A stretch of 49,318 bases of DNA from Candidatus Kaiserbacteria bacterium (GTDB taxonomy: Bacteria > Patescibacteriota > Minisyncoccia > Phycocordibacterales > UBA2100), in contig JACPLC010000003.1 in assembly GCA_016186695.1 (NCBI GenBank), forward strand, positions 1 to 49,318, in the 5' to 3' direction. The position numbers and the translations under genes were made by a program. A model generated the notes under the pieces. It was not told the origin of the DNA. It saw only the letters and a program-made list of their open reading frames with translations, and searched no databases. Positions 13,565-31,719 of this stretch are shown here, in pieces (position 1 is the first letter of the stretch; every line of letters begins with the position of its first letter).

Positions 13565-14524
13565 TCAGACGGTAAAATTCCGTATCGAGTAGAGGTCTTC
13601 CTGCTGCTGCCCGCTACCCTTTTCAGAAACTGTTTCCGCAGGCTTCACCGCTCCTGATATTTCGGCCGATCGCGACACAGCGCTTTCTTGTGAGACCGAC
13701 GCTGATTCGATAGTTGTGAGCATCTTCCGGATGTGTGCGAGATCGTCGACAGAAAAGAAATCGATGGTGACTTTTCCTCCTTCTTGTTTTTTCTCGATGC
13801 GCACGCGTGTGCCGAGCTTTTCGGTGAGCTCGCGCTCGAGGAGCAAAAGCTCCGGTGTGAGATCGGACTTGCGGGTTTTCTCGGGAGTTACGCGACGCGC
13901 GAGCTGTTCGGCATCGCGTACATTCAGTTTACGCGTAATGATTTCCACAAAGAGCGTGCGCTGCTCTGCGGGACGATCCATGAGCATCAAAAGCGGGCGC
14001 GTGTGGCCTTCGCTGATTTCGCTTTTCGAAAGAGCGTCGAGCATATCCTGCGGCAAAAGGAGGATGCGTAGAGAATTCGAGACGTATTCGCGGCTTTTGC
14101 CAACGCGCTTGCCGATCTCGACATGCTTCAAGCCAAACTCCTCGACGAGCCGCTTGAACGCATGCGCACGATCGACTGGATTTAAATCTTCTCGCTGCAA
14201 ATTTTCGATGATGGCGAGTTCGAGCTTGAGACGATCATCGTCCTCGCCACTCCGGATGACGACGGGAACCTCGCGGATACCCGCGAGCTTCGCCGCGCGA
14301 AGGCGCCGCTCGCCCGCGATGAGTTCGTATTCGACCGCGATCCCCTCTCCTGCTTTTTCGATCTCCTTGCGCGTGACCGTAAGCGGCTGCAAGACACCGT
14401 AGCTCCGGATGGATTCCGCGAGTGAGGCAAGCGAGGCCTCATCGAAAGATTTGCGAGGCTGGAAGGGATTGGGCTTTATCCGCTCGACTTCAACCCAGAA
14501 TATTGAATTGTTGAAATACGCCAT
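13565..14524 (-). CDS. parB: ParB/Spo0J partition protein
   Basis: PNPFQPRK, ELIAGERRLRA, IENLQREDLNP, HTH GKSREYVSNSLR. Confidence 0.95.
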   Translation of the reverse strand: MAYFNNSIFWVEVERIKPNPFQPRKSFDEASLASLAESIRSYGVLQPLTVTRKEIEKAGEGIAVEYELIAGERRLRAAKLAGIREVPVVIRSGEDDDRLKLELAIIENLQREDLNPVDRAHAFKRLVEEFGLKHVEIGKRVGKSREYVSNSLRILLLPQDMLDALSKSEISEGHTRPLLMLMDRPAEQRTLFVEIITRKLNVRDAEQLARRVTPEKTRKSDLTPELLLLERELTEKLGTRVRIEKKQEGGKVTIDFFSVDDLAHIRKMLTTIESASVSQESAVSRSAEISGAVKPAETVSEKGSGQQQEDLYSIRNFTV

Positions 14525-14542
14525 AAAAAAAGTATATCACGT

Positions 14543-14721
14543 GTGCCGGGAGAGAGACTTGCCCGCGGCTCTCGGCTCGTCGTCACTCGCCTCGGCCTGG
14601 GCACCAGCTCGCAGCCTCGCGTGCTCGCTCGGCATCGCTCCGCTGTTCAAGTCTCTCACGCTGCGTGCGCAGGCACGCAGCTTCCCAATGCTCGCTTCGC
14701 GAGTGCCGGGAGAGAGACTTG
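14543..14721 (-). mobile_element. tRNA-3'-associated structured element, copy 1 (behind tRNA-Leu CAA)
   Basis: 19-bp direct repeat GTGCCGGGAGAGAGACTTG at 14543-14561 and 14703-14721; 141-nt interior homologous to 24895-25037. Confidence 0.8.
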
Positions 14722-14787
14722 AACTCTCATGACCTTGCGGTCGAACGATCTTGAGTCGTTTGCGTCTGCCAATTCCGCCATCCCGGC
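14704..14787 (-). tRNA. tRNA-Leu(CAA)
   Basis: Acceptor GCCGGGA/TCCCGGC; AACGA-CT CAA GA-TCGTT; long variable arm; T-loop TTCAAGT. Confidence 0.96.
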
Positions 14788-14810
14788 TTGCTGGCTATAA
14801 TACGCCAGCA

Positions 14811-15716
14811 ATGACTACGAGACAAAAGATTTTGGTCATCATCGGGCCGACAAGCTCAGGTAAGAGCGCCCTTGCCATCGAGCTTGCGCGAAAATTCAAC
14901 GGTGAGGTGATTTCCGCGGATTCGCGGCAGGTCTACAAAGGGCTCAACATCGGCACAGGAAAAATCACGAAGAAGGAGATGGGGAGCGTCAGACACCATC
15001 TCTTGGACGTTGCATGGCCGAAAAAGATTTTCACCGCACAGAATTTCGTCGTACAAGGACGAAAGGCAATCGCGGATATCGCCGCGCGAGGCAAACTGCC
15101 CATTGTCGCCGGTGGCACCGGCTTCTACATCGACACATTGCTCGGACGAATTGCGCTGCCCGACGTCCCGCCTAACCAAGAACTTCGCGCAAAGCTTGAA
15201 CAAAAAACCATCAAGCAATTGTTCGCGCTTCTTAAAAGCAAAGACCCCCGCCGCGCACGCAGTATTGATTCACACAATAAGCGCCGCCTGATTCGCGCCC
15301 TCGAAATCGTCTCCGCTCTCGGTAAAGTTCCAAATAACGACCTACGAGGTCGTTATTCGATACTATGGATCGGGCTCAGCGCACCGATAAAAATACTGGA
15401 GAAAGAGATTTTAATTCGCTTACGCGTGCGAATTAGAGGAGGGATGGTCGGTGAGGCGCGATGGCTGCACAAGGCCGGTCTCACCTATCGCCGGATGGAA
15501 CAGCTTGGACTCGAGTACCGTGCCCTCGCTCGTCATCTGCAGGGAAAAATCTCTCACGACCAAATGGTTCACGAACTAAACCATAACATCCGCCGCTATG
15601 CGAAGCGCCAACTCACTTACTGGAAACGCAATCGCTCAATCCACTGGTTCAATCCGATGCGGAGAGAAAAAATATGCAAATTGGTCGGCATGTGGCTCCG
15701 TACAAGCGGGCGCTGA
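14811..15716 (+). CDS. miaA: tRNA dimethylallyltransferase
   Basis: GPTSSGKS, ISADSRQVY, GGTGFY, RRLIRALEI, RRYAKRQLTY; 3' end overlaps tRNA-Trp on the opposite strand. Confidence 0.96.
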   Translation: MTTRQKILVIIGPTSSGKSALAIELARKFNGEVISADSRQVYKGLNIGTGKITKKEMGSVRHHLLDVAWPKKIFTAQNFVVQGRKAIADIAARGKLPIVAGGTGFYIDTLLGRIALPDVPPNQELRAKLEQKTIKQLFALLKSKDPRRARSIDSHNKRRLIRALEIVSALGKVPNNDLRGRYSILWIGLSAPIKILEKEILIRLRVRIRGGMVGEARWLHKAGLTYRRMEQLGLEYRALARHLQGKISHDQMVHELNHNIRRYAKRQLTYWKRNRSIHWFNPMRREKICKLVGMWLRTSGR

Positions 15717-15777
15717 GGGAATCGAACCCCCGACGTCGGTTTTGGAGACCGAAGTTATACCATTTAACTAAGCGCCC
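15707..15777 (-). tRNA. tRNA-Trp(CCA)
   Basis: Acceptor GGGCGCT/AGCGCCC; TCGGT-CT CCA AA-ACCGA; T-loop TTCGATT. Confidence 0.96.
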
Positions 15778-15794
15778 AACGCGGGCAGTATACC

Positions 15795-15953
15795 TCACTT
15801 TTTTGTCTCTTTGTGAACGGTGTGCGCTCTACACCAGCGGCAGTACTTCTTGACTTCGATTTTGCGCTCGACAAGCTTCTTGTTCTTACGCGACCAGTAG
15901 TTGGTGCGCCCGCACTTGCTGCAGGCCATTTTTATCAATTGCTCTTGGGACAT
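15795..15953 (-). CDS. rpmG: 50S ribosomal protein L33 (zinc-binding type)
   Basis: Below the ORF-track cutoff; manual translation MSQEQLIKMACSKCGRTNYWSRKNKKLVERKIEVKKYCRWCRAHTVHKETKK. Confidence 0.95.
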   Translation of the reverse strand: MSQEQLIKMACSKCGRTNYWSRKNKKLVERKIEVKKYCRWCRAHTVHKETKK

Positions 15954-16328
15954 GTTAGTTTTTCTTACGAGTGGAGCGAGTTAGAAATAACTTACACCCG
16001 CCTAAATTTTGAACGAAAGATTTTTAATGTATCTGGAATAGACCTCTCTAGATAATTCCTACCCCACCCAGTCTTAAGGTACGTCTCGCGTTGCATTGCG
16101 TCCTTCCGACTCGCATGCAACTCGCAGTACAAAAGTTCGAGCGGTCTTCGCAAAGATGTTGCCGGAACGCGTCCAGCATTATGCTCTGCGAGTCGCGCCT
16201 TTATATCACGGCATGAACCTGTGTACAAATTGCCGTCTTTCAGACTACCGAGGACGTAGACGCAATGCATCGTTCAAAATTTGGGCGGGTTAGAAAAATA
16301 TAGTCGCTTCACTCGTTATTTTTCTAAC
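15954..16328. mobile_element. Putative GIY-YIG-carrying hairpin/inverted-repeat cassette
   Basis: 21-bp IR with 1 mismatch (15996-16016 / 16270-16290) brackets the nuclease ORF; outer hairpins at 15954-15995 and 16289-16328. Confidence 0.7.
15992..16270 (-). CDS. Small stand-alone GIY-YIG nuclease
   Basis: VYVL...LYTG...RLAEHN...T..RRP..L...E...AMQRETYLK. Confidence 0.92.
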   Translation of the reverse strand: MHCVYVLGSLKDGNLYTGSCRDIKARLAEHNAGRVPATSLRRPLELLYCELHASRKDAMQRETYLKTGWGRNYLERSIPDTLKIFRSKFRRV

Positions 16329-16728
16329 AAACCTCGTTCCATGGACCGAACAATGCGCCTTCGCTCACGAGCGTTTTCATTATGATATCTACGATAAGCC
16401 ACGCGGCTAGAATGAGCACGAGGCCGACCCCGACCGTCCAGAAAATCTTTTTTGCATTAGTCGCCTTGCCAGAATCCCCTCCCGCGGTAATGTATTGCCA
16501 TCCGGCGTAGGCAAAAAGAAAGGCGGCGAGGAAAATGGCGATGTAGATGCCGGCATTGATCGTGTTTTGCGCAAGCTGGGCGATGTCACAAATGCCGCAG
16601 GTTTTCGCGGCGCCTGCGCGGCAGTGCTCCGGCACAATCGTGGGGATTTGCGCGAATGCAATTGAGGGAGCGAGCACGATGAGAATCAGACCCCTCCTTA
16701 GCCATCTGACCGCGCGATTTTCAAACAT
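16324..16728 (-). CDS. TrbC/VirB2-like pilin-type membrane protein
   Basis: Signal ending AFA, Cys motif, two TM helices around YITAGGDSGKATNAKK, LILAAWLIV. Confidence 0.8.
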   Translation of the reverse strand: MFENRAVRWLRRGLILIVLAPSIAFAQIPTIVPEHCRAGAAKTCGICDIAQLAQNTINAGIYIAIFLAAFLFAYAGWQYITAGGDSGKATNAKKIFWTVGVGLVLILAAWLIVDIIMKTLVSEGALFGPWNEVC

Positions 16729-16808
16729 GGAACGATTGTAGCATCGGTGGACAGCAGCACATACGCACTAGAAGTAATCAAATCTGGTGTGTCCATGAAT
16801 ATGTAGCC

Positions 16809-16836
16809 TTGACATCGCTGCAGTGTTGCTTACCAT
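16809..16836 (+). promoter_or_regulatory. Sigma70-type promoter, probably leaderless, for the 16843 ORF and tRNA-Tyr
   Basis: TTGACA-16 nt-TACCAT, then 6 nt to the ATG. Confidence 0.55.
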
Positions 16837-16842
16837 TCCCCT

Positions 16843-17460
16843 ATGTCTGCAATTCCGCAAAATGAATGGAAAAAAGTTGGAGAATTGTATTCATCTGGTC
16901 TGCCGATGAGAGCGGTTGCCAATCAGATGAGCGTATCGATAGATGCGGTGACATACGTGTTACGCCGAATAAAAGTGCCGCGGCGTGATTTTAAAGCAGC
17001 AAGTCGTCTCGCCTACGAAGCTAAGACGCCAACATTCAGCATTCGCGCGGGGAACGCCAGACGTGTGTCCGAGTTAGATGCAGTGGGAGCCATGCTCTAT
17101 TGGGCGGAAGGATATAAGAGAGAAACAGCTAGCGGGATAGATTTTGCAAATAGTGATGCCGATATGAGCAAGTTATTCCTTAAATTCCTCCAAAAAAGGT
17201 ACCGGCTTGATGAAAATCGGTTGCATTTTTCGATCTACTATTACGCTGATCAGGACTTGGAGAGTATTCTTGCTTTTTGGTCCCAAAAACTAGAGAAGCC
17301 ATTAGGGCAATTCAAAAATCATTATCGTAAACCAAATCCACGGGATGGTACCCGTAAACTCCCATACGGTGTGCTTCACATCAGGTACAATGACAAGAAG
17401 CTTTTACGAGATGTACTAAGTTTGATAGAATCCTACAAACGCAAGTATGTATTGCGTTGA
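16843..17460 (+). CDS. HTH plus LAGLIDADG-like endonuclease-family protein
   Basis: N-terminal HTH-like ELYSSGLPMRAVANQMSVSIDAVTYVL; GAMLYWAEG helix, IDFANSD, KLFLKFL, YGVLHIRY. The fold assignment is inferred. Confidence 0.7.
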   Translation: MSAIPQNEWKKVGELYSSGLPMRAVANQMSVSIDAVTYVLRRIKVPRRDFKAASRLAYEAKTPTFSIRAGNARRVSELDAVGAMLYWAEGYKRETASGIDFANSDADMSKLFLKFLQKRYRLDENRLHFSIYYYADQDLESILAFWSQKLEKPLGQFKNHYRKPNPRDGTRKLPYGVLHIRYNDKKLLRDVLSLIESYKRKYVLR

Positions 17461-17463
17461 AAT

Positions 17464-17546
17464 GCGCCGGTGGCGGAGCAGCTAACGCACGTGACTGTAG
17501 ATCACGCGGACTATGTCCTTCGGGGGTGCAAGTCCCTCCCGGCGCA
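17464..17546 (+). tRNA. tRNA-Tyr(GTA) with non-canonical D and T loops
   Basis: Acceptor GCGCCGG/CCGGCGC; CGTGA-CT GTA GA-TCACG; variable arm; T arm GGGGG-TGCAAGT-CCCTC. Confidence 0.9.
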
Positions 17547-17548
17547 CA

Positions 17549-17761
17549 ATGAAATTGTTACTTATGATAGTGATTGGAATGGTCGCGTACGACCTCTCAA
17601 TCCATTTGTTATACCTTTTTGGGAAGGAGCAATATTTCTTGCAACGCAAGCTGAACTATTGGCCGTACTGGAAAGAGCATGGGCGCTCCTATCAGATATT
17701 TTGGAGCCTGTTTTGGGGAACAGCACTAGCCTTACTGCTCGTGTACTTTGTTACGCTCTAA
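17549..17761 (+). CDS. Small two-TM membrane protein (70 aa)
   Basis: [15 protein letters not shown]...[20 protein letters not shown]; starts 2 nt after tRNA-Tyr. Confidence 0.6.
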
Positions 17762-20432
17762 CAGCCGCGCGCGCGCGAGCGCTGTGTGAGCGCACGGGAC
17801 CCTTGCGAACGTCAAAGGTAAACTCGCCATCTTTGATATCAACGGAGACCGAACCTCCTTCCATCACACCGCGGGCGACCATCATGTTTGCGATCGGTGT
17901 CATGATCTTCGTCTGGATGAGACGCTTCAGCGGCCGTGCACCGTACTGCGGGTTGTATCCTTCTTTTGCAAGATGCGTGAGCGCGGCCGAAGAAAGCGAG
18001 AGTGAAATGTGTTTTTCCTCGAGACGCTTCGCGACGATATCCACCTGCATACGCACAATGTCGCGCACAGCCTCCTCGGAGAGAATGTTGAAGAGCACAA
18101 TTTCGTCGAGACGATTGAGGAATTCCGGGCGGAAAAAATCCTTCAAGGCGTCCATTACCTTCTGCTTCGCGTGGTCGTAGCGCTCGGCCTGCGTAGTACC
18201 GGCTCCGCTGCCGAAGCCCAGAGAAGACATACGGTCGATGTGCTCCGCGCCGATGTTGGAGGTCATGATGATGACGCAGTTCTTGAAGTTGACCGTGCGC
18301 CCCTTCGCATCCGTGAGACGGCCGTTGTCCAAAACCTGCAGGAGGATATTGAATACCTCCGGATGTGCTTTCTCTATCTCGTCGAAAAGAATCACCGAGT
18401 ACGGGCGATGCCGCACGAGCTCGGTCAAGCCGCCTCCTTCGTCGTAGCCCACATACCCCGGCGGAGAGCCGATCATCTTCGAAATGGAGTGTTTTTCCAT
18501 GTACTCCGACATATCGACGCGAATGAGGGCTTTGTCGGTGTTGAACATAAATTCCGCAAGTGCTTTCGTAAGCTCGGTCTTGCCGACACCCGTTGGGCCG
18601 AGGAAGAGGAACGAACCAACGGGGCGCTGAGGATCCGCAATGCCTGCGCGCGAGCGTTTGATGGCATCCGAAACTTTTTGGACTGCTTCGTCCTGTCCCA
18701 CGATGCGTACTTTTAGCTCGCCCTCCATGCGCGAGAGCTTTTCGGCTTCCTCTTCGAGCATGCGGGAGACGGGAACGCCGGTCCAGCGCGAGACAACATG
18801 CGCGACGTCCTCCTCCGTAATCTCTTCTTTGAGCACCCGTCTCGTTTGCTGAAGCTTCTTCATGCGCTTCATCGCGGTATCGAGTTCCCGCTCGAGCGCA
18901 GGAATGCGCCCGTAGCGGATTTCGGCTGTTTTGGTGAGATCGGCAGCATTTTCTGCCGTCTCGGACTCGACACGCGCCTTCTCAAGATCCGCCTTCAGGC
19001 GCTTGATCTCGGTGAGCGTTTCTTTCTCGTTCTTCCATTTGAGTTCGAGTTCTTTGGTGGAATCGCGCAGATCGGCGATTTCCTTCTCGATTGCCTTCGT
19101 GCGTGTGCGCGCCTTGCCAGCCTCTTCGGCTTCTTTCTTCAGAGCTTCGCGTTCGATCTCGAGACGCATGATGGTGCGGTGTGCTTCTTCCAAAATAGGC
19201 GGCTTGCTCTCAAGCGAGAGGCGAAGCGCCGAAGAGGCCTCATCGATAAGGTCGATCGCTTTGTCAGGAAGAAATCGCTCCGTGATGTAGCGGGTGGAAA
19301 GCTGTACGGCCGCGACAATAGCGTCGTCGGTGATGCGCACGCCGTGGTAGAGCTCGTAGCGCTCCTTCAATCCGCGCAAAATCGCGACCGCGTCCTCGAC
19401 TGAAGGCTCGTTGACATAGACGGGCTGGAAGCGACGTGTGAGTGCAGGGTCGTGCTCGATGTGCCGCTGGAACTCTTTCAGGGTCGTCGCGCCGATAACG
19501 CGGATCTCGCCACGCGCGAGCGCGGGCTTTAGCATGTTGGAAGCGTCCATCGAGCCTTCGGCAGCCCCGGCTCCCACAAGTGTATGGATCTCATCGACAA
19601 AAAGAATGATCTTCCCTTCGGAGCGCTCCACCTCACGCATCACCGCCTTCAAGCGCTCTTCGAATTCGCCGCGGTATTTCGTTCCCGCGATCAGTAGGCC
19701 CAGATCGAGCTGAACGATTTCCTTCCCCTTCAGACTCTCCGGCACATCGCCCGAGGCAACACGCTGTGCAAGCCCTTCGGCGACCGCCGTTTTGCCGACA
19801 CCCGCCTCGCCTATCAAAATCGGATTGTTCTTCGTGCGGCGCGAGAGGATCTGAATGACACGTAAGATTTCTGTATCGCGCCCGATGACGGGATCGAGCT
19901 TATTCTCGCGGGCACGCTCCGTGAGCGAGCGCGCAAAACGCGAGAGCGCGCGGGGTTTCTTCGGCTCCTCGGCATCGCGAATCTTCCCTTCTTTGATGTC
20001 GGTCAAGACACGCGCGAGCGCGGCACGATCGATACGAAAGCGCGCGAGCACATCGGAAGCCGGCCCGGGATGTTCGATGAGGCCGAGAAGGAGATGTTCG
20101 GGCGAGACGAACTGGTCGTTGAACGAAGCTGCGATACGCGGAGCCGCTTCAAAGACGCGCACTAATTCTGGTGTGAGATAGAGTTGGAATGAGGGAGAAA
20201 CCGCGGTATTGCCCGAAGAGCCCTCAATGAGCTCCAAGACAGAGTCAGAAAGGTGGGCAACGTCGATATCCACCTGCTCGAGCATCGGCACGACGATAGT
20301 TTCCTCCTGCATGAGAAGCGCGGTAAACAAATGGAGTGTTGAGACCTGGTTGTTCCCGCGCTCGACCGCGAGCTGGTGGGCCCGCTGGATGGCTTCTTTG
20401 GCCTTGGTTGTGTAGTTGTGGAATGGTGTCAT
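17751..20432 (-). CDS. clpB: ATP-dependent chaperone ClpB
   Basis: Clp N repeats, GEAGVGKT, long middle coiled coil, [25 protein letters not shown]. Confidence 0.95.
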
Positions 20433-20637
20433 ACCCGGTTAGTAGAATGTGCCTTTGCGCCAAGCGGAGGCGCGCTGGCGCGGCGTGAGCGACCAACTCT
20501 CAGCTGGTGCACTTTGGATATATTCGTTATTTGTTTTCATGATTTGTGTAAGCCTAAGGCACATTACACTACCGGGTCATACGAAAAAGCTTCAAGCTGC
20601 TTCAAAGAATACAGCAAAAAGGCTTTGGTTTCAAGCG

Positions 20638-21456
20638 CTACTCGGTGGCCGCAGGACTTTCTTCAGGTTGCTTCACGAGGACCGAAGTTGGCATGAAGGC
20701 TGCAGGAGAAGACGCTCGGGAAACTGAAGTACTTACACCGATAACTCCTCCTTCCGTATCTATAAGAGGGCTCCCGTCCATCACAAAGTCGGCCGAAACA
20801 TTGGTATCTATGACAGCAACCCCCCCTTCATCGCGCGGGATGAGTGCGGTCACGAGACCGTCTGTAATACGTGAGATAGTTTTCCCCGAAAGAACGACGA
20901 TTGTTTGCCCGAGTGTGGGAGAGCCGACCGAAAGTGTGGCAGGCGTGAATTGCACTATCTTCCCGTCCGCGGTCGTGGTAGCGGCACGCAGGGTCGCAAC
21001 GCCGCTCTTCGAATCACGGGAAGCAGGCGATGCGCTGACGCGTGTGCCGTCGGCAAGGGCAATCATAATATTCTTCACCTCGCCGATAGCCGAGACATCA
21101 CTGACAACATCTCCATCTGCATCAACGATAATGCCAAGCCCTAGGAAAACTGGCTCGGAAGAACTTGCGTATATGTGCACGAGGCTCGGTCGTACTTTTT
21201 CCACGGCTTTTGCGATGAGTTCAGACTCCTTCACCACGATGGTTTTCTCGGTCGTTACGACAGAAGAGGCAGTCTGACCGCTCGGCACCACCTTTTCAAC
21301 GGTGCGTTCGACGATGCGATTCACCGTCTGCGCGATAGCGGGCGGCGCCTGATCCATGAGGGAGACCGTGACGATGCCAGTAGCAATAGAGGTGACAAAG
21401 CTCACCAAGAGCGTAAGGAGGACGATTTGGGATTTGGAAAGCTCCTCCATGTCCAT
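20638..21456 (-). CDS. Membrane-anchored trypsin-like (S1C/HtrA-like) protein, apparently inactive
   Basis: TM helix, AVEKVRPSLVHI, GLGIIVDADG, GSPLIDTEGGVIGV; catalytic triad residues not found. Confidence 0.75.
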   Translation of the reverse strand: MDMEELSKSQIVLLTLLVSFVTSIATGIVTVSLMDQAPPAIAQTVNRIVERTVEKVVPSGQTASSVVTTEKTIVVKESELIAKAVEKVRPSLVHIYASSSEPVFLGLGIIVDADGDVVSDVSAIGEVKNIMIALADGTRVSASPASRDSKSGVATLRAATTTADGKIVQFTPATLSVGSPTLGQTIVVLSGKTISRITDGLVTALIPRDEGGVAVIDTNVSADFVMDGSPLIDTEGGVIGVSTSVSRASSPAAFMPTSVLVKQPEESPAATE

Positions 21457-21490
21457 GGCCGCAATATAGCAACTTTCCGAAACCGCGCAA

Positions 21491-22678
21491 TTATGGGGTT
21501 TTCCCTACTATCCTTACGATCCTTGTGAGCGCCGAGACAATACTGCCTATGTCGCGCTGACGGGTATCGCGCCCCAATGATATACGGATAGTATTCGCTG
21601 CCCTCCACTCCTCTCCGCCGAGGGCAGCGACAACGTGCGAACGAGATTCTTCTCCTTCGCGGCACGCGCTCTTCGTCGAAACGGCGAAGCCTGCGTGATC
21701 GAGCGCGAGCGTCACATATTCGCTCTGAATATTAGGTATCGAAACATTGAGCATGTGCGGAAGCGAGTGCTTTAAGTCGCCGTTAACGATAAGAGACGGA
21801 ATTCGTGCGGCGAGTTCGTGCGCGAGCTCGTCACGCAATTTTTTAAGTCGCTCCGTCTCAAGCTTCCTCTCATACGCCACAAGCTCGAACGCCGCGGCAA
21901 ATCCCGCAGCGAGTGCGACACTCTCCGTGCCGGCGCGGAGCCCGCGTTCTTGTTTCCCGCCAAAGGTAATCGTGGCAAGTTCGACTTTGTTCGAGATATA
22001 GAGCGCGCCGACCCCATGCGGGCCATAGAGCTTGTTGCCACCGAGAGAGAGAAGGTCGACGCCGAGACTGCTGATGACCGTCGGAAGATAGAGCAGCGCC
22101 TGTCCTGCGTCGGTGTGAAATGCAATATGCCTTTTATGGTGGTCGCTAAAATTTTTCAGTACGCGGGCAATTTTTCCGAGCGGTTGAACCGTTCCGATTT
22201 CATTATTCGCCCAGCCGATAGAAACAAAAACGGTTTCGGGTCGAAGCATCCGCCCGATAGCATCGGGAGAAATTATTCCCCGTTCGTCCGGATCGACGTG
22301 CGAGACTGTTCCGCCGAGACGCTCGATCTCTGCAAAACAACCGAGAACAGAATCGTGCTCGATCGAACTTACGAGCCAATGCGTGCCAGAAAGCGACCTT
22401 CGCGTTTGCTCGAGTTTTCTCGCAAAACCAATAATCGCGAGATTGTTCGCCTCGGTAAGACCGCTGGTTATGATAAGCTCGCGCGCTTTGCAGCCCAAGG
22501 GAATCGCAATCCTCGCGCGCGAATCTTCGAGAGACTTTTTTGCCGCGACCCCTTCCGTGTGTATCGCGCCGGCATTGCCGACGAGCTGCTCCGCATCACG
22601 CATCGCGACGATCGCATCCCGTAAAACAGGCGGCGCGCTCGCGTAATCGAGATAAATCCGACGTTTGGAAAACAACAT
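21491..22678 (-). CDS. iscS: Cysteine desulfurase (IscS/NifS)
   Basis: IYLDYAS, ANNEIG, HTDAGQ, NKLYGPHGVG, RAGTE, STKSAC. Confidence 0.9.
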   Translation of the reverse strand: MLFSKRRIYLDYASAPPVLRDAIVAMRDAEQLVGNAGAIHTEGVAAKKSLEDSRARIAIPLGCKARELIITSGLTEANNLAIIGFARKLEQTRRSLSGTHWLVSSIEHDSVLGCFAEIERLGGTVSHVDPDERGIISPDAIGRMLRPETVFVSIGWANNEIGTVQPLGKIARVLKNFSDHHKRHIAFHTDAGQALLYLPTVISSLGVDLLSLGGNKLYGPHGVGALYISNKVELATITFGGKQERGLRAGTESVALAAGFAAAFELVAYERKLETERLKKLRDELAHELAARIPSLIVNGDLKHSLPHMLNVSIPNIQSEYVTLALDHAGFAVSTKSACREGEESRSHVVAALGGEEWRAANTIRISLGRDTRQRDIGSIVSALTRIVRIVGKTP

Positions 22679-22727
22679 AAGAGGAGTATACTGCCGAAAA
22701 CTGCCTGTATGGCAATCGCTGCAACAT

Positions 22728-24242
22728 ATGTCAAAACCAACCGCACAGGCCGAGCGTCCTCCTATCGTCGTGGTGATGGGCCATGTCGATCACGGCAAAT
22801 CGACGCTCCTTGATTTCATCCGCAAATCGAACACCGTCGCAAAAGAAGCCGGCGGCATCACGCAGCACGTAGCAGCGTACGAGGTAGAGCGCCCTTCTAC
22901 ACGTTCAGGACAAACGAAAAGAATTACGTTTATTGACACTCCCGGACATGCCGCGTTCCAGACGATACGCGCGCGCGGCGCAAATGTAGCCGACATCGCG
23001 ATCCTCGTCGTCGCCGCAGACGACGGCGTGAAGCCGCAGACGCTGGAGGCATTGCAGAGCATCAAAGGCGCAGACATCCCCTACATCGTCGCCATCAACA
23101 AGATCGACAAACCAAACGCAAACGTGGAACGCACGCAGGCATCTCTCATGCAAGAGGGCGTTTATCTCGAAAAACTCGGCGGTGACGTCCCATGGGCAGC
23201 AATTTCCGCAAAAGTTGGGACCGGTGTCGAAGAACTGCTGGATCTCATTCTTCTCGTTGCGGAAGTGCACGAATTGAAGGGTGGTGCGGAGGCACCGGCG
23301 TCGGGTTTTGTCATTGAGGCGCACCGCGATCCGAAACGGGGTCTTGCGGCAACGCTCATTATTACAAGCGGAACACTACGCTCCGGCATGACAGTCGTTG
23401 CCGGTCGCGGTATCTCCCCTGTGCGCATCATGGAAACGACGGGCGGTGTTGCTTTACGCGAGGCTTCATTTTCAACGCCGGTACAACTCGTGGGATTCGA
23501 CGAGCTGCCCGACGTCGGTGCGGAATTCCTTGCATTCAAGGGAAAGCGCGAGGCAGAAGAGGCGCGCTCGGCTGCGAGCGAAACGCGTGTGAAGGAGGGA
23601 AAGGCGGCGTATATTCCCGAGGAACATCCGGCGCAATTCAGCCTCCCGCTCATCGTACGCGCCGACACCTCCGGTTCTCTTGAAGCGATAGAACATGAGA
23701 CCGTGAAGCTGGGAGACGAGCATGCATCGGTGCGAATTGTGCAATCGGGAATCGGCGCCGTTTCCGAAAACGACGTGAAAGCTGCACTCGCGGGCTCTGT
23801 GCAAGCGGTCGTCATTGGCTTCAACGTGAAGGTAGACCCGATCGCCGAAGAGCATGCGCGGCAGCATATGGTGCGTGTTGAGACCTTCGACATCATCTAC
23901 AAACTGACCGAGCGCGTCGAGGAACTTTTGCACCAGACTCGGCCAAAGCGTCTCGTCGAAGAAATCGTGGGTAAAGCAAAAGTGCTCAAACAATTCTCGA
24001 GCCGCAAAGATCAACACGTCGTCGGGGGCTCGGTAGCCGAAGGCTACCTTGCACGCGGTGCTTCCGTGCGGGTGCTACGCCGCAGGACGCTCATCGGCGT
24101 CGGAAAAATAAAGAACATTCAGTCGCACAAGGCAGATGTCGAACGCGTTGAGTCTGGTAGTGAATTCGGTGCTCTCATCGTAAGCCCGTTCGAGGTAGTA
24201 CAGGGTGACACGTTGGAGTGCTTCACGAGCGCGATGAAATGA
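22728..24242 (+). CDS. infB: Translation initiation factor IF-2 (short form lacking the N-terminal extension)
   Basis: [42 protein letters not shown]. Confidence 0.96.
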
Positions 24243-24574
24243 ACATGAGCCGCAGGCACGTACAGGTGTCCGAAGAACTCGCACACATGGCCGGTGAATT
24301 TCTCGCGCGCGAGGTGGCAAATCCATCGGTCTACGGCCTCATAACCGTGACTCGCGCGGAACTCTCGGACGACTTCAGGAACGTTACCGTTTTTCTTTCG
24401 GTCCTTCCACAGACGAAGGAGAACGAGGCCATTCATTTTGCGAAGCGCGCACGAAGTGATTTCCGGAAATACGTGAAGGAGCACAGCTTTCTGCAACCCA
24501 TTCCGATCATCGATTTTGAAATCGACTATGGTGAGAAAAACCGCCAGCGCGTCGACGAATTAACAAGGAAATAG
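24239..24574 (+). CDS. rbfA: Ribosome-binding factor A
   Basis: Follows infB with an ATGA overlap; ITVTRAELSDD, P.IDFEID. Confidence 0.9.
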   Translation: MNMSRRHVQVSEELAHMAGEFLAREVANPSVYGLITVTRAELSDDFRNVTVFLSVLPQTKENEAIHFAKRARSDFRKYVKEHSFLQPIPIIDFEIDYGEKNRQRVDELTRK

Positions 24575-24578
24575 GTTG

Positions 24579-24650
24579 AGGCCACGGCGGGACTCGAACC
24601 CGCGCATAAGAGTTTTGCAGACTCCCGTGTTACCCCTTCACCACGTGGCC
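24579..24650 (-). tRNA. tRNA-Cys(GCA)
   Basis: Acceptor GGCCACG/CGTGGCC with discriminator T; anticodon loop CT GCA AA. Confidence 0.96.
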
Positions 24651-24694
24651 GACGCGTGTACTTTAGCATAAATTGAGCTAGGATTAGCGACATT

Positions 24695-24777
24695 GCCGGG
24701 GTGGCGAAAATGGTAATACGCGCACGACTTAAGATCGTGTTCCGAAAGGAGTGTGGGTTCGACTCCCACCCCCGGCA
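24695..24777 (+). tRNA. tRNA-Leu(TAA)
   Basis: GCCGGGG/CCCCGGC; CACGA-CT TAA GA-TCGTG; variable arm. Confidence 0.96.
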
Positions 24778-24819
24778 CATCGTTCTCAAAAATAATCCCG
24801 TCGTGTACAATCTGACAGA

Positions 24820-24892
24820 CCGCCCGTAGCTCAACTGGTAGAGCAGCCGCCTCTTAAGCGGTTGGTTCCGCGTTCGAGTCGCGGCGGGCGGA
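24820..24892 (+). tRNA. tRNA-Lys(CTT)
   Basis: CCGCCCG/CGGGCGG; GCCGC-CT CTT AA-GCGGT; T-loop TTCGAGT. Confidence 0.95.
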
Positions 24893-25056
24893 CACGAACG
24901 GAGTGAGTGCCGCTCGAGCAGTGTGCCTTCGCACACTGCGTCCCGACGAGAACGCCGGAGCGATGAGAGGCGAGCTCGCCGAGCAGCGAGGCGGTGCCCA
25001 GACCGAGGCGAGCGACGGCGAGCCGAGAGTCGAGGGAGAGTCGCGGCGGGCGGACA
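24876..25056 (+). mobile_element. tRNA-3'-associated structured element, copy 2 (behind tRNA-Lys CTT)
   Basis: 19-bp direct repeat GAGTCGCGGCGGGCGGACA at 24876-24894 and 25038-25056; 143-nt interior homologous to 14562-14702. Confidence 0.8.
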
Positions 25057-25088
25057 AGAAAACTTTTTTGCTATAGGATGAACGTCTC

Positions 25089-31050: not shown

Positions 31051-31719
31051 ATGGAGTTGTATCATGTGTTGAACAGAGGAACCGAGAAACGCGACATATT
31101 CATGGACGATCGCGATCGAGCGCGCTTCGTGCATGACCTGTTCGAATTCAACGACACAAAACCCGCGAGCAACGTCGCATATTCATTCAAAAGAAATATG
31201 GATGTCGGACATCCATATATTGAGCGGGAGCGAATCGTCGATCTTCATGCATGGTGTCTAATGCGCAATCACTATCACCTTCTAATCTCCGAACGAATGG
31301 ATGGTGGTACCACCACGTTTATGCGAAAGCTCAACACTGGATATACCAACTATTTCAACGAGCGGTACAAACGCAGCGGCGTGCTTTTTCAGGGAAAAAC
31401 AAAGAAAGTTCTCATCCATTCACGAGCACATTTTTTGCATGTCATCCACTACATTCACCTAAATCCCCTGGACTACGTTTCAAGCGCACGGGAGTGGCGA
31501 AACGGCCGAGTCGCTGACGCCGCGACTGCAAAGAAACGTCTTGAACAGTATCGCTGGAGCAGCTTCTTGGATTATTCCGGAAAAAAGAATTTCCCCTCTG
31601 TCCTATACCCCGACTTCTTTCGGGACGCCATCGGCGACGTGGGAAAGAAGACTCTGGAGTATCTCGGCAAGCCGCGTAACGCGCTTGACGATACGTTGCC
31701 TTCCCGATTTCTCGAGTAA
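31051..31719 (+). CDS. REP-associated tyrosine transposase (RAYT; IS200-like HUH/Y1)
   Basis: YHVLNRG, CLMRNHYHLL (HUH), YTNYFN, GVLFQG, YIHLNP, YRWSS. Confidence 0.93.
   Translation: MELYHVLNRGTEKRDIFMDDRDRARFVHDLFEFNDTKPASNVAYSFKRNMDVGHPYIERERIVDLHAWCLMRNHYHLLISERMDGGTTTFMRKLNTGYTNYFNERYKRSGVLFQGKTKKVLIHSRAHFLHVIHYIHLNPLDYVSSAREWRNGRVADAATAKKRLEQYRWSSFLDYSGKKNFPSVLYPDFFRDAIGDVGKKTLEYLGKPRNALDDTLPSRFLE
31196..31218. repeat. REP-like palindrome inside the transposase ORF
   Basis: ATATGGATGTC-g-GACATCCATAT, read in frame as NMDVGHPY. Confidence 0.9.

Follow-up and report, generated by a model that had tools for sequence, protein, structure and literature searches.

Structured inserts behind tRNA genes of Patescibacteria carry segments complementary to their host tRNA

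Introduction

Integrative elements target the stretch from the T-loop to the 3' end of transfer RNA (tRNA) and transfer-messenger RNA (tmRNA) genes, and the direct repeat that results rebuilds the tRNA. In attP(+) of the CTX phage, which XerCD recombines, the site is folded single-stranded DNA (ssDNA) made of an inverted copy, a structured spacer of ~90 nt and a direct copy. Elements of the IS200/IS605 group use targets of 4-5 nt, leave no target duplication, and carry bases by the foot of a hairpin that pair with the cleavage/target site. Here, we report on two inserts in a 49,318-nt stretch of DNA from a Candidatus Kaiserbacteria bacterium (GenBank assembly GCA_016186695.1, contig JACPLC010000003.1, positions 1-49,318; "the window" is this whole stretch, and G000 labels the source genome). 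One insert follows tRNA-Leu(CAA) and the other tRNA-Lys(CTT); each is 141-143 nt long, lies between the tRNA and a second copy of that tRNA's 3' end, and contains segments antisense to its own tRNA.

The element resembles the described systems in some respects and departs from each of them in others. With tRNA-targeting integrative elements it shares the target, a tRNA-rebuilding repeat that ends at the 3' end and the occurrence of filled and empty sites, but it is ~140 nt long, has no gene, contains a covarying core and an antisense of its target, and reaches up to 20 copies per genome. The order of inverted copy, structured spacer and direct copy, with the structure kept on one strand, is that of CTX attP(+) and integron attC; what the element would mimic, however, is a tRNA gene and not dif or attI, and no phage genome or cassette gene is attached to it. 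IS200/IS605 elements, palindrome-associated transposable elements (PATEs) and repetitive extragenic palindromes with their transposases (REP/RAYT) are likewise small non-autonomous hairpin elements, with a foot-adjacent pairing that the geometry of the element would fit, and Y1-like genes are present in the genomes studied here; unlike them, the element has 13+7 nt of complementarity, a long duplication, no correlation with Y1 genes and, in genome G078, no strand bias. Group II introns with their exon- and intron-binding sites (EBS/IBS) and the IS110 bridge RNA also combine a structured non-coding part with target-complementary segments. The inserts, in contrast, hold no intron-encoded protein or DEDD recombinase gene (the genomes were not searched for the DEDD family), their two guide parts pair with one contiguous strand, and size and fold differ. 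The primer-binding site of retroviruses and long terminal repeat (LTR) elements is the complement of the 3' part of a specific tRNA, whereas the complement in the element lacks the CCA, is usually split by a hairpin, and stands in genomes (G000 and G078) in which no reverse transcriptase was found. Sites of the attC kind have been taken for an RNA motif before: according to Weinberg et al. 2017 (PMC5737381), a predicted "RNA motif" coincided with integron attC sites.

Results

Two inserts of one kind behind two tRNA genes

The arrangement had been proposed in a preliminary description made by eye from the letters of the window. Using ARAGORN and Rfam for the tRNA calls together with a repeat search, we located the repeats on both sides of each insert (Table 1). 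The repeat search returned a 25-nt direct repeat for the Leu copy (92% identity, 14537-14561 / 14697-14721, spacing 160) and a 23-nt repeat for the Lys copy (96%, 24876-24898 / 25038-25060, spacing 162). The ungapped 87-nt core claimed for the two inserts was recomputed at 69/87 identical positions, with 39/44 in the distal part, and the best of 20,000 random 87-mer pairs drawn from the window reached 41/87. Both arm pairs of the shared hairpin are present in the two inserts, and so is the perfect 13-nt reverse complement of the T-arm in the Leu copy. For the Lys copy, a hand check of CGTCCCGAC against GTCGCGGCG gave the 8/9 pairing that had been described, with one G.T and one C.C mismatch. 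We read the 3' antisense of the Lys copy, with GA opposite G57-A58, as a recurrent variant rather than as a degenerate copy; the same GA variant recurs behind other tRNAs with a TTCGAG T-loop, and the GA opposite G57-A58 is a possible tandem G.A. Behind hosts of this T-loop type the antisense often reads ...GACGAGAAC instead of the exact complement ...GACTCGAAC (Lys copy 24947-24950; L059, L111, L155, L171).

No integrase lies inside the 141-143-nt inserts. Open reading frames (ORFs) on the program-made list that overlap the inserts extend across the tRNA genes too and were therefore not taken for genes; none was tested as one. Read support consists of the assembled contigs of four runs (two DNA, two RNA), not of raw reads. 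Logan contigs of the two DNA runs match 14250-14643 and 14758-15050 exactly and break in the repeated middle; no exact-strain contig bridges 14643-14758, and one diverged contig (27 differences, 2 gaps) spans 14542-14742. The contigs of the RNA runs cover the tRNA and parts of parB only, with none on the element, and are uninformative on transcription.

Table 1. Parts of the two element copies in the window
Feature	Position	Strand	Remarks
Host tRNA-Leu(CAA)	14704..14787	minus	ARAGORN/Rfam start 14703/4
Proximal repeat, tRNA-Leu(CAA)	14704-14721	minus	T-loop C56 to A73
Linker mini-hairpin, Leu copy	14691..14703	minus	CTCGC-GAA-GCGAG; GCGAAGC inside, a recurrent linker motif in the family
5' antisense segment, Leu copy	14683..14688	minus	TTGGGA; partner is the acceptor 3' strand TCCCGG, two G.U
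Conserved hairpin, Leu copy	14660..14681	minus	9-bp covarying stem, CTGC loop
3' antisense segment, Leu copy	14645..14657	minus	GAGAGACTTGAAC; perfect complement of tRNA positions 53-65
Structured core, Leu copy	14562..14644	minus	P1/P2 domain; long P3 hairpin (tandem G.A, GACG loop); E 4.9e-35
Distal copy of tRNA-Leu 3' end	14544..14561	minus	CAAGTCTCTCTCCCGGCA; then the original parB-side flank
Host tRNA-Lys(CTT)	24820..24892	plus	ARAGORN/Rfam end 24892/3
Proximal repeat, tRNA-Lys(CTT)	24876-24892	plus	
5' antisense segment, Lys copy	24910..24916	plus	CCGCTCG; partner is the acceptor 3' strand CGGGCGG, one G.U
Conserved hairpin, Lys copy	24918..24939	plus	GCAGTGTGC / CTTC / GCACACTGC
3' antisense segment, Lys copy	24942..24953	plus	CCCGACGAGAAC; 9/12 paired with tRNA 53-64 (hand count), GA opposite G57-A58
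Structured core, Lys copy	24954..25037	plus	R1 model E 6.7e-29
Distal copy of tRNA-Lys 3' end	25038..25054	plus	

A family tied to the 3' ends of tRNA genes

The source genome (902 kb, 10 contigs; 48 genes in the ARAGORN list, i.e., 47 tRNA calls and one tmRNA) contains five element copies: the two in the window, a third and a fourth on contig C10 behind tRNA-Pro(GGG) and tRNA-Val(CAC), and a fifth of another subtype on contig C7 behind tRNA-Gly(GCC), which was detected through its direct repeat. The hairpin motif occurs in this genome only within three of the copies and nowhere outside the element, and REP-like dispersal of the hairpin alone was rejected on this basis. By BLAST, the Leu insert has matches in 28/61 relatives, G000 included. 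A covariance model (R1) built from an alignment of 25 copies (A2) gave four clear matches in G000 and 876 in 106/116 genomes of the genus (median 6, range 0-20 per genome); the genomes measure 0.6-1.6 Mb, and the median corresponds to 6 copies per ~0.9 Mb genome. R1 misses a third subtype of the core, so that these copy counts are lower bounds. Ten of the 116 genomes, one of them 99% complete, have no R1 match, and a subtype-3 query against five genomes lacking R1 matches returned a single 19-nt match only. Among 151 genomes drawn evenly across the phylum, R1 matched in 9 (G000 included) and in none of the other 142.

An exact 23-base core pattern was found in at least 119 stretches of species-representative genomes. 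The titles of the 80 stretches listed name Candidatus Kaiserbacteria, Taylorbacteria, Jorgensenbacteria, Uhrbacteria, Woesebacteria, Paceibacterota, "Saccharibacteria" and others; the named contigs with the core are Patescibacteria (candidate phyla radiation, CPR), apart from three metagenome-assembled genomes among those listed that are labelled Bdellovibrionales, Chitinophagaceae and Gammaproteobacteria. The same pattern has 0 matches in viral contigs, and a viral origin was rejected. At gathering score, Rfam 15 matched tRNA only in the window and 8 other loci, in agreement with the earlier failure to recognise a described family, and in E-value mode the best non-tRNA match over 14500-14800 had an E of 1.4; subtypes 2 and 3 entered these scans only where they are present in the scanned loci. 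No description of such an element turned up in the open full-text literature that we searched. The TIGR-Tas system (PMC12045711) is unrelated to tRNA trailers.

We then have the question of where the copies lie. R1, run over the fetched loci, gave 68 matches in set A3 and 102 in set A4, i.e., 159 unique copies, with model-match spans of ~104-167 nt. A tRNA or tmRNA gene on the same strand lies within 520 nt upstream of 133 of the 159 and within 70 nt of 123, and the hosts span nearly every amino-acid type plus tmRNA. The proposed tie of the homologs to tRNA 3' ends is borne out by these counts. One host, that of the copy at 177-323 of L051 (G080), was given the anticodon TTA ("tRNA-Stop") by ARAGORN and may be of the suppressor type or wrongly called. 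In L024 (G058) 1142-1567, G138:C11:9428-9731, L147 and L029, two or three units stand in tandem without an intervening tRNA; in the L024 array the antisense of each unit fits its own distal copy, not the preceding repeat.

Architecture, fold and strand

Read along the tRNA-sense strand, a typical copy has this order: the intact tRNA, a variable linker (usually a hairpin), an anti-acceptor segment, a hairpin, an anti-T-arm segment, the core and a sense copy of the tRNA 3' part. The anti-acceptor segment is short, complements the acceptor 3' strand and often extends into the trailer of the proximal copy; the conserved hairpin has a 9-bp covarying stem and a CTGC/CTTC loop; the anti-T-arm segment, of 12-13 nt, complements tRNA positions 53-65; the core has two domains, P1/P2 and the long P3 hairpin, the latter with a GACG-type loop and tandem G.A pairs; and the terminal sense copy covers tRNA positions ~57-73. 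The complement, which covers tRNA positions ~53-73 in all, is thus usually bipartite, the conserved hairpin dividing it where T-stem and acceptor meet, a point absent from the preliminary description. The core occurs in at least three subtypes with few invariant unpaired bases in common, and in subtype 3 the antisense is a single contiguous stretch of 16-19 nt with no mid hairpin.

The fold is supported by covariation. From the 25 copies of A2, RNAalifold derived 32 pairs, and compensatory changes were seen in 28 of these. In A4, 95.7% of the cells form standard pairs, compared with 68.1% in column shuffles, and changes on both sides were seen in 30/32 pairs, including 9/9 pairs of hairpin helix 1; the covariation score was 0.633 against 0.162 in shuffled alignments (0/500 shuffles as high), and partners slid out of register gave at most 0.098.

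Over the 159 copies the stem pairs comprise 4532 Watson-Crick, 145 G.U, 26 A.C and 81 G.A. The 5.6-fold excess of G.U over A.C indicates that the fold is selected on the tRNA-sense strand, which fits an RNA transcribed in the tRNA direction or single-stranded DNA of that strand. A structure kept on one strand while the sequence varies (30/32 pairs) is also what folded recombination sites display. The linkers are strand-specific as well: the heptamer GCGAAGC occurs in 11/123 linkers (~0.75 expected from the all-loci background) and its complement in 1, and CGAAG occurs in 27 against 2 for CTTCG. The motif, which stands at 14694-14700 (minus) in the Leu linker, is presumably an unusually stable ssDNA mini-hairpin.

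The 251-nt RNA of tRNA plus element has a minimum-energy fold of -123.2 kcal/mol (z -4.46) in which the antisense segments hold the proximal 3' half and the distal copy closes the tRNA body, whereas the element alone (153 nt) adopts a self-closing fold of -77.2 kcal/mol (z -3.28). Two mutually exclusive pairings are therefore supported by the sequence.

The antisense follows the host tRNA

The preliminary description suggested that the variable segment co-varies with the T-arm of the host, and it does. The longest unbroken paired run between the 3' antisense and tRNA positions 53-67 has a mean of 11.1 nt with the cognate tRNA and 7.0 nt with non-cognate types, the highest of 100 shuffle means being 7.36; for the 5' antisense the values are 7.1 and 5.1, with a shuffle maximum of 5.40. 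Among 82 well-registered copies, T-loop position 55 is C or G instead of T in 10 hosts, and it is complemented in 10/10. Position 55 lies outside the distal repeat, so that the complement reaches T-loop positions that the repeat lacks, which had been missed before. Where the proximal and distal repeats differ within positions 57-65 (38 copies), the antisense is the better match to the real tRNA in 29, the better match to the distal copy in 2, and an equal match to both in 7; many of these differences sit where the repeat has its variable left edge.

The direct repeat derived from the tRNA 3' part flanks the insert, as it does in tRNA-targeting integrative elements. Distal repeats are 16-17/17 identical in 68/123 copies and decayed (10/17 or less) in 29/123. 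The repeat ends 0-2 nt past position 73 in 56/76 copies, and an end at position 73 is expected if an element-borne copy must rebuild the tRNA. Insertion in the T-loop by an element that brings a tRNA 3' copy with it, as classical integrative elements do, is favoured on two counts: the repeat stops at the tRNA end, and decay affects the distal copy and spares the proximal one.

Empty and filled sites, and similar cores behind different hosts

Empty alleles, which the preliminary description proposed to look for in relatives, were found among 30 orthologous tRNA-Leu(CAA) loci that we fetched via the downstream parB gene: seven sites are empty and two filled, and two more filled ones were seen outside this set. 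With the tRNA adjacent and in the same orientation, there is no insert in G124 (ParB 87% identical), G068, G078, G021, G098, G109 or G123. G000 has a subtype-1 copy at this tRNA-Leu(CAA)/parB site and G014 a hairpin-less copy of a different subtype, and further variants stand at the same tRNA-Leu(CAA) in G120 and G018. The flank after the distal copy of G000, CACGTGATATACTTTTTT, corresponds to the flank right after the tRNA of G124, CCCGTGGTATACTTTTTT. Empty orthologous sites support an insertional element, and the presence of different subtypes at one site argues for repeated insertion; an empty site could also arise by recombination between the repeats.

Nearly identical cores can stand behind different tRNAs. 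The nearest core from another locus stands behind a tRNA of the same anticodon in 20/123 copies (shuffled mean 3.3, maximum 13) and behind a tRNA of another amino acid in 97/123. The cores of L127 (tRNA-Cys) and L117 (tRNA-Arg) differ at 1 position per 87, their linkers and hairpins are unrelated, and the flanking segments are matched to the respective host; the block that they have in common begins with the complement of T-loop 53-58, extends as far as sense 57-58 and so ends at 58|59 on both arms. L155 (tRNA-Val) and L112 (tRNA-Ser) are homologous throughout save for the host-matched segments. From these pairs it follows that the host-matched parts are replaced faster than the core diverges.

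Discussion

We read the inserts as members of a large Patescibacteria (CPR) family of ~120-170-nt, protein-less, single-strand-structured, non-autonomous insertion elements at the 3' ends of tRNA and tmRNA genes. The results above establish the family, its place behind tRNA genes, the fold and its strand, the host-matched antisense, the filled and empty sites and the near-identical cores behind different tRNAs; to the reading as a whole, with the mechanism set out below, we give a rough probability of 0.42. The earlier suggestion had two parts: a non-autonomous insertion element is supported by the empty sites, and a choice of target by base-pairing is, as before, only inferred. Briefly, we envisage that the element is single-stranded at some stage, as ssDNA or RNA, and that its antisense would then pair with the copy of the tRNA 3' part that the element itself carries. 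This pairing would yield a double-stranded mimic of the T-arm/acceptor region of a tRNA gene with the core as its cap, by analogy with the folded CTX phage attP or integron attC. A host function, i.e., a putative enzyme, might then exchange strands in the T-loop; the element-borne copy would complete the tRNA, and the original, once displaced, would remain downstream, where it would form the distal repeat and could decay freely. The antisense would in this way both build the folded site and match the target.

Several points weigh against this proposal. No recombinase, nuclease, free form or circular form was found; longer copies carrying a nuclease or transposase, which had been thought possible, were not found either. 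No dedicated integrase accounts for the element: G078, with 18 copies, has a single Phage_integrase match, as has G084. The 18 copies of this complete genome (30-138 bits) are old and diverged and give no sign of a recent burst. Some tRNA-less copies are preceded by promoter-like -35/-10 motifs (read by eye), which favours an expressed RNA gene, and tandem G.A pairs, like G.U pairs, are characteristic of RNA. The proposal also gives no account of the enzyme or of the way in which three host-matched segments would be reset when a new tRNA is entered. As for the data themselves, alignments made with the model (A4 was fitted to it) lean to the model's structure, the A4 loci were chosen by the exact 23-base pattern in part of the core, the host calls rest on ARAGORN, which requires an intact proximal copy, and the related genomes in the counts are not independent. 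In the nearest ORFs of nine tRNA-less copies no recurring gene was seen by eye, and no family search was made there.

The insert may instead act in cis on tRNA maturation, as an RNA switch or a processing element that is co-transcribed as a trailer, an explanation that we hold to be unlikely. The antisense would sequester the tRNA's 3' half or pair with the distal decoy and close the core, in the manner of the P1 of a riboswitch, and a ligand or protein at the core would decide between the pairings and hence the amount of mature tRNA. Selection of the structure on the tRNA-sense strand, an antisense that follows the real tRNA even at position 55 outside the repeat, the two exclusive folds with their z values, the exact conservation of core nucleotides across named records from many lineages of CPR, and the promoter-like motifs ahead of solo copies would all suit such a switch. 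The element is, however, dispensable, as the genomes of the genus (10/116) and of the phylum (142/151) with no match indicate; orthologous sites are empty in close relatives; the distal copies that would act as decoys are decayed in 29/123; several copies have a terminator-like hairpin between tRNA and element (read by eye); the three core subtypes have few invariant unpaired bases in common; and near-identical cores behind different tRNAs are left unaccounted for. The insertion-element and RNA-switch readings are compatible, in that a mobile element could need an RNA fold to spare the tRNA.

A bolder variant of the insertion-element reading, which we rate as rather unlikely, is a protein-less programmable element: an antisense guide of ~20 nt on a scaffold would direct insertion into a tRNA gene by base-pairing and would be re-templated from the new target, through a putative host enzyme. 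It would account for the Cys and Arg cores that differ at 1/87, for the replacement of all host-matched segments and for the block that ends at 58|59.

A non-autonomous relative of IS200/IS605 (PATE or REP-like), moved as ssDNA by Y1 (HUH) transposase-like proteins with guide bases by the hairpin feet that pair with the cleavage sites, is improbable. The geometry is compatible, in that the antisense segments each sit on the 5' side of a core or hairpin foot and have their partners outside, a layout that resembles these elements, and the strand-biased GCGAAGC of the linkers points the same way. Y1_Tnp (IS200-like) matches occur in 108/116 genomes of the genus, with three in G000, of which one is in the window at 31051-31719. 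Copy number is nevertheless uncorrelated with the number of Y1 matches (Spearman -0.12, p 0.20); no Y1 match exists in four genomes with at least 8 copies, Y1 is present in 9/10 element-free genomes, and no element model match lies beside the three Y1 genes that were checked. These counts give no support to a Y1 transposase as mobiliser. Further, the copies of G078 lie interleaved on both strands, the protein at 31051-31719 scores under the cut-off of the NCBIfam REP-associated tyrosine transposase (38.9 bits, cut-off 80), and a repeat of 17-25 nt is unlike the duplication-free 4-5-nt targets of this group. Please note that the 31051-31719 (plus) ORF encodes 222 amino acids with an HYH motif and has a weak Pfam Y1_Tnp score of 27.5 bits; its paralogs, of 220-300 amino acids, are common in the genus, with 1-16 matches per genome.

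That the inserts are scars of integrase-borne islands or phages in tRNA genes, with nearly everything lost between attL and attR, seems quite improbable to us. The target and the tRNA-rebuilding repeat are those of classical integrative elements, and an integrase gene adjoins tRNA genes elsewhere in G000; scars would hardly have a constant layout and narrow length (~104-167 nt in model matches), a covarying and strand-specific core, a host-matched antisense in each copy and up to 20 copies per 0.6-1.6-Mb genome, and the exact core pattern is missing from the viral contigs. The integrase gene in question is the second Phage_integrase match of G000 (74.7 bits), at G000:C10:62649-63098 (minus), outside the window; it adjoins tRNA-Phe and tRNA-Arg(TCT) and has the appearance of an integrative element of the ordinary kind at a pair of tRNAs.

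A T-loop intron, in which the distal copy would complete the tRNA once the ~160-nt insert has been removed, is very improbable. The minimum-energy fold of the whole transcript is exactly the spliced shape, but the proximal copy already gives a complete tRNA, it is the distal copy that decays while the proximal one is intact, and no intron or ribozyme family matched in Rfam. Archaeal-type splicing was rejected: the endonuclease family (PF01974) was found in 0/5 genomes, and RtcB is absent from G000, G078 and G084 and was found, among the genomes tested, only in G124, which is without the element.

We give hardly any credence to a relic of a tRNA-primed retroelement with the antisense as primer-binding site, for although the antisense complements the 3' portion of a tRNA, as the primer-binding site of retroviruses does, and the shared block of the near-identical cores stops at T-loop 58|59, which we take to be the stop point of reverse transcriptase on a tRNA primer, the antisense is usually split by a hairpin and stops at or near the discriminator with no CCA complement in the inspected copies, and RVT_1 is absent from G000 and from G078 with its 18 copies, so that reverse transcription as a current mechanism was rejected.

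If the inserts are insertion elements, a conserved scaffold that has a target-matched antisense but no gene would add a new means by which mobile DNA locates tRNA genes, and it could point to a new recombination activity in CPR bacteria, whose genomes are very small. If they are tRNA-linked RNA switches, they would be the first structured regulator of tRNA maturation on the 3' side. Under either reading the element is among the most abundant conserved non-coding structures in the genus, and its hundreds of natural variants lend themselves to testing the function of antisense, hairpin and core.

Additional observations on individual loci

Upstream of the solo copies in L014, L056, L114, L121, L125, L162 and L007 stands a promoter-like TTCG(C/A)G-N17-TA(T/C)AAT. 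In several cases a GC-rich, two-hairpin block is also conserved ~100-250 nt upstream of the solo copy, and one like it precedes parB in L072; the solo-copy loci scanned with Rfam (L056, L114, L121, L125) gave no match. The copy at 1754-1900 of L059 (G105) directly follows the C-terminal end of an ORF that, from its translation, looks like an IS3-family DDE transposase, and the insertion sequence may have parted this element from its tRNA. At the parB locus, tRNA-Leu(CAA) lies opposite to parB and 54-135 nt away in ten of the 30 genomes (L069, L074-L076, L079, L082, L085, L087, L089, L097), which indicates that the tRNA gene has been inverted locally within the genus.

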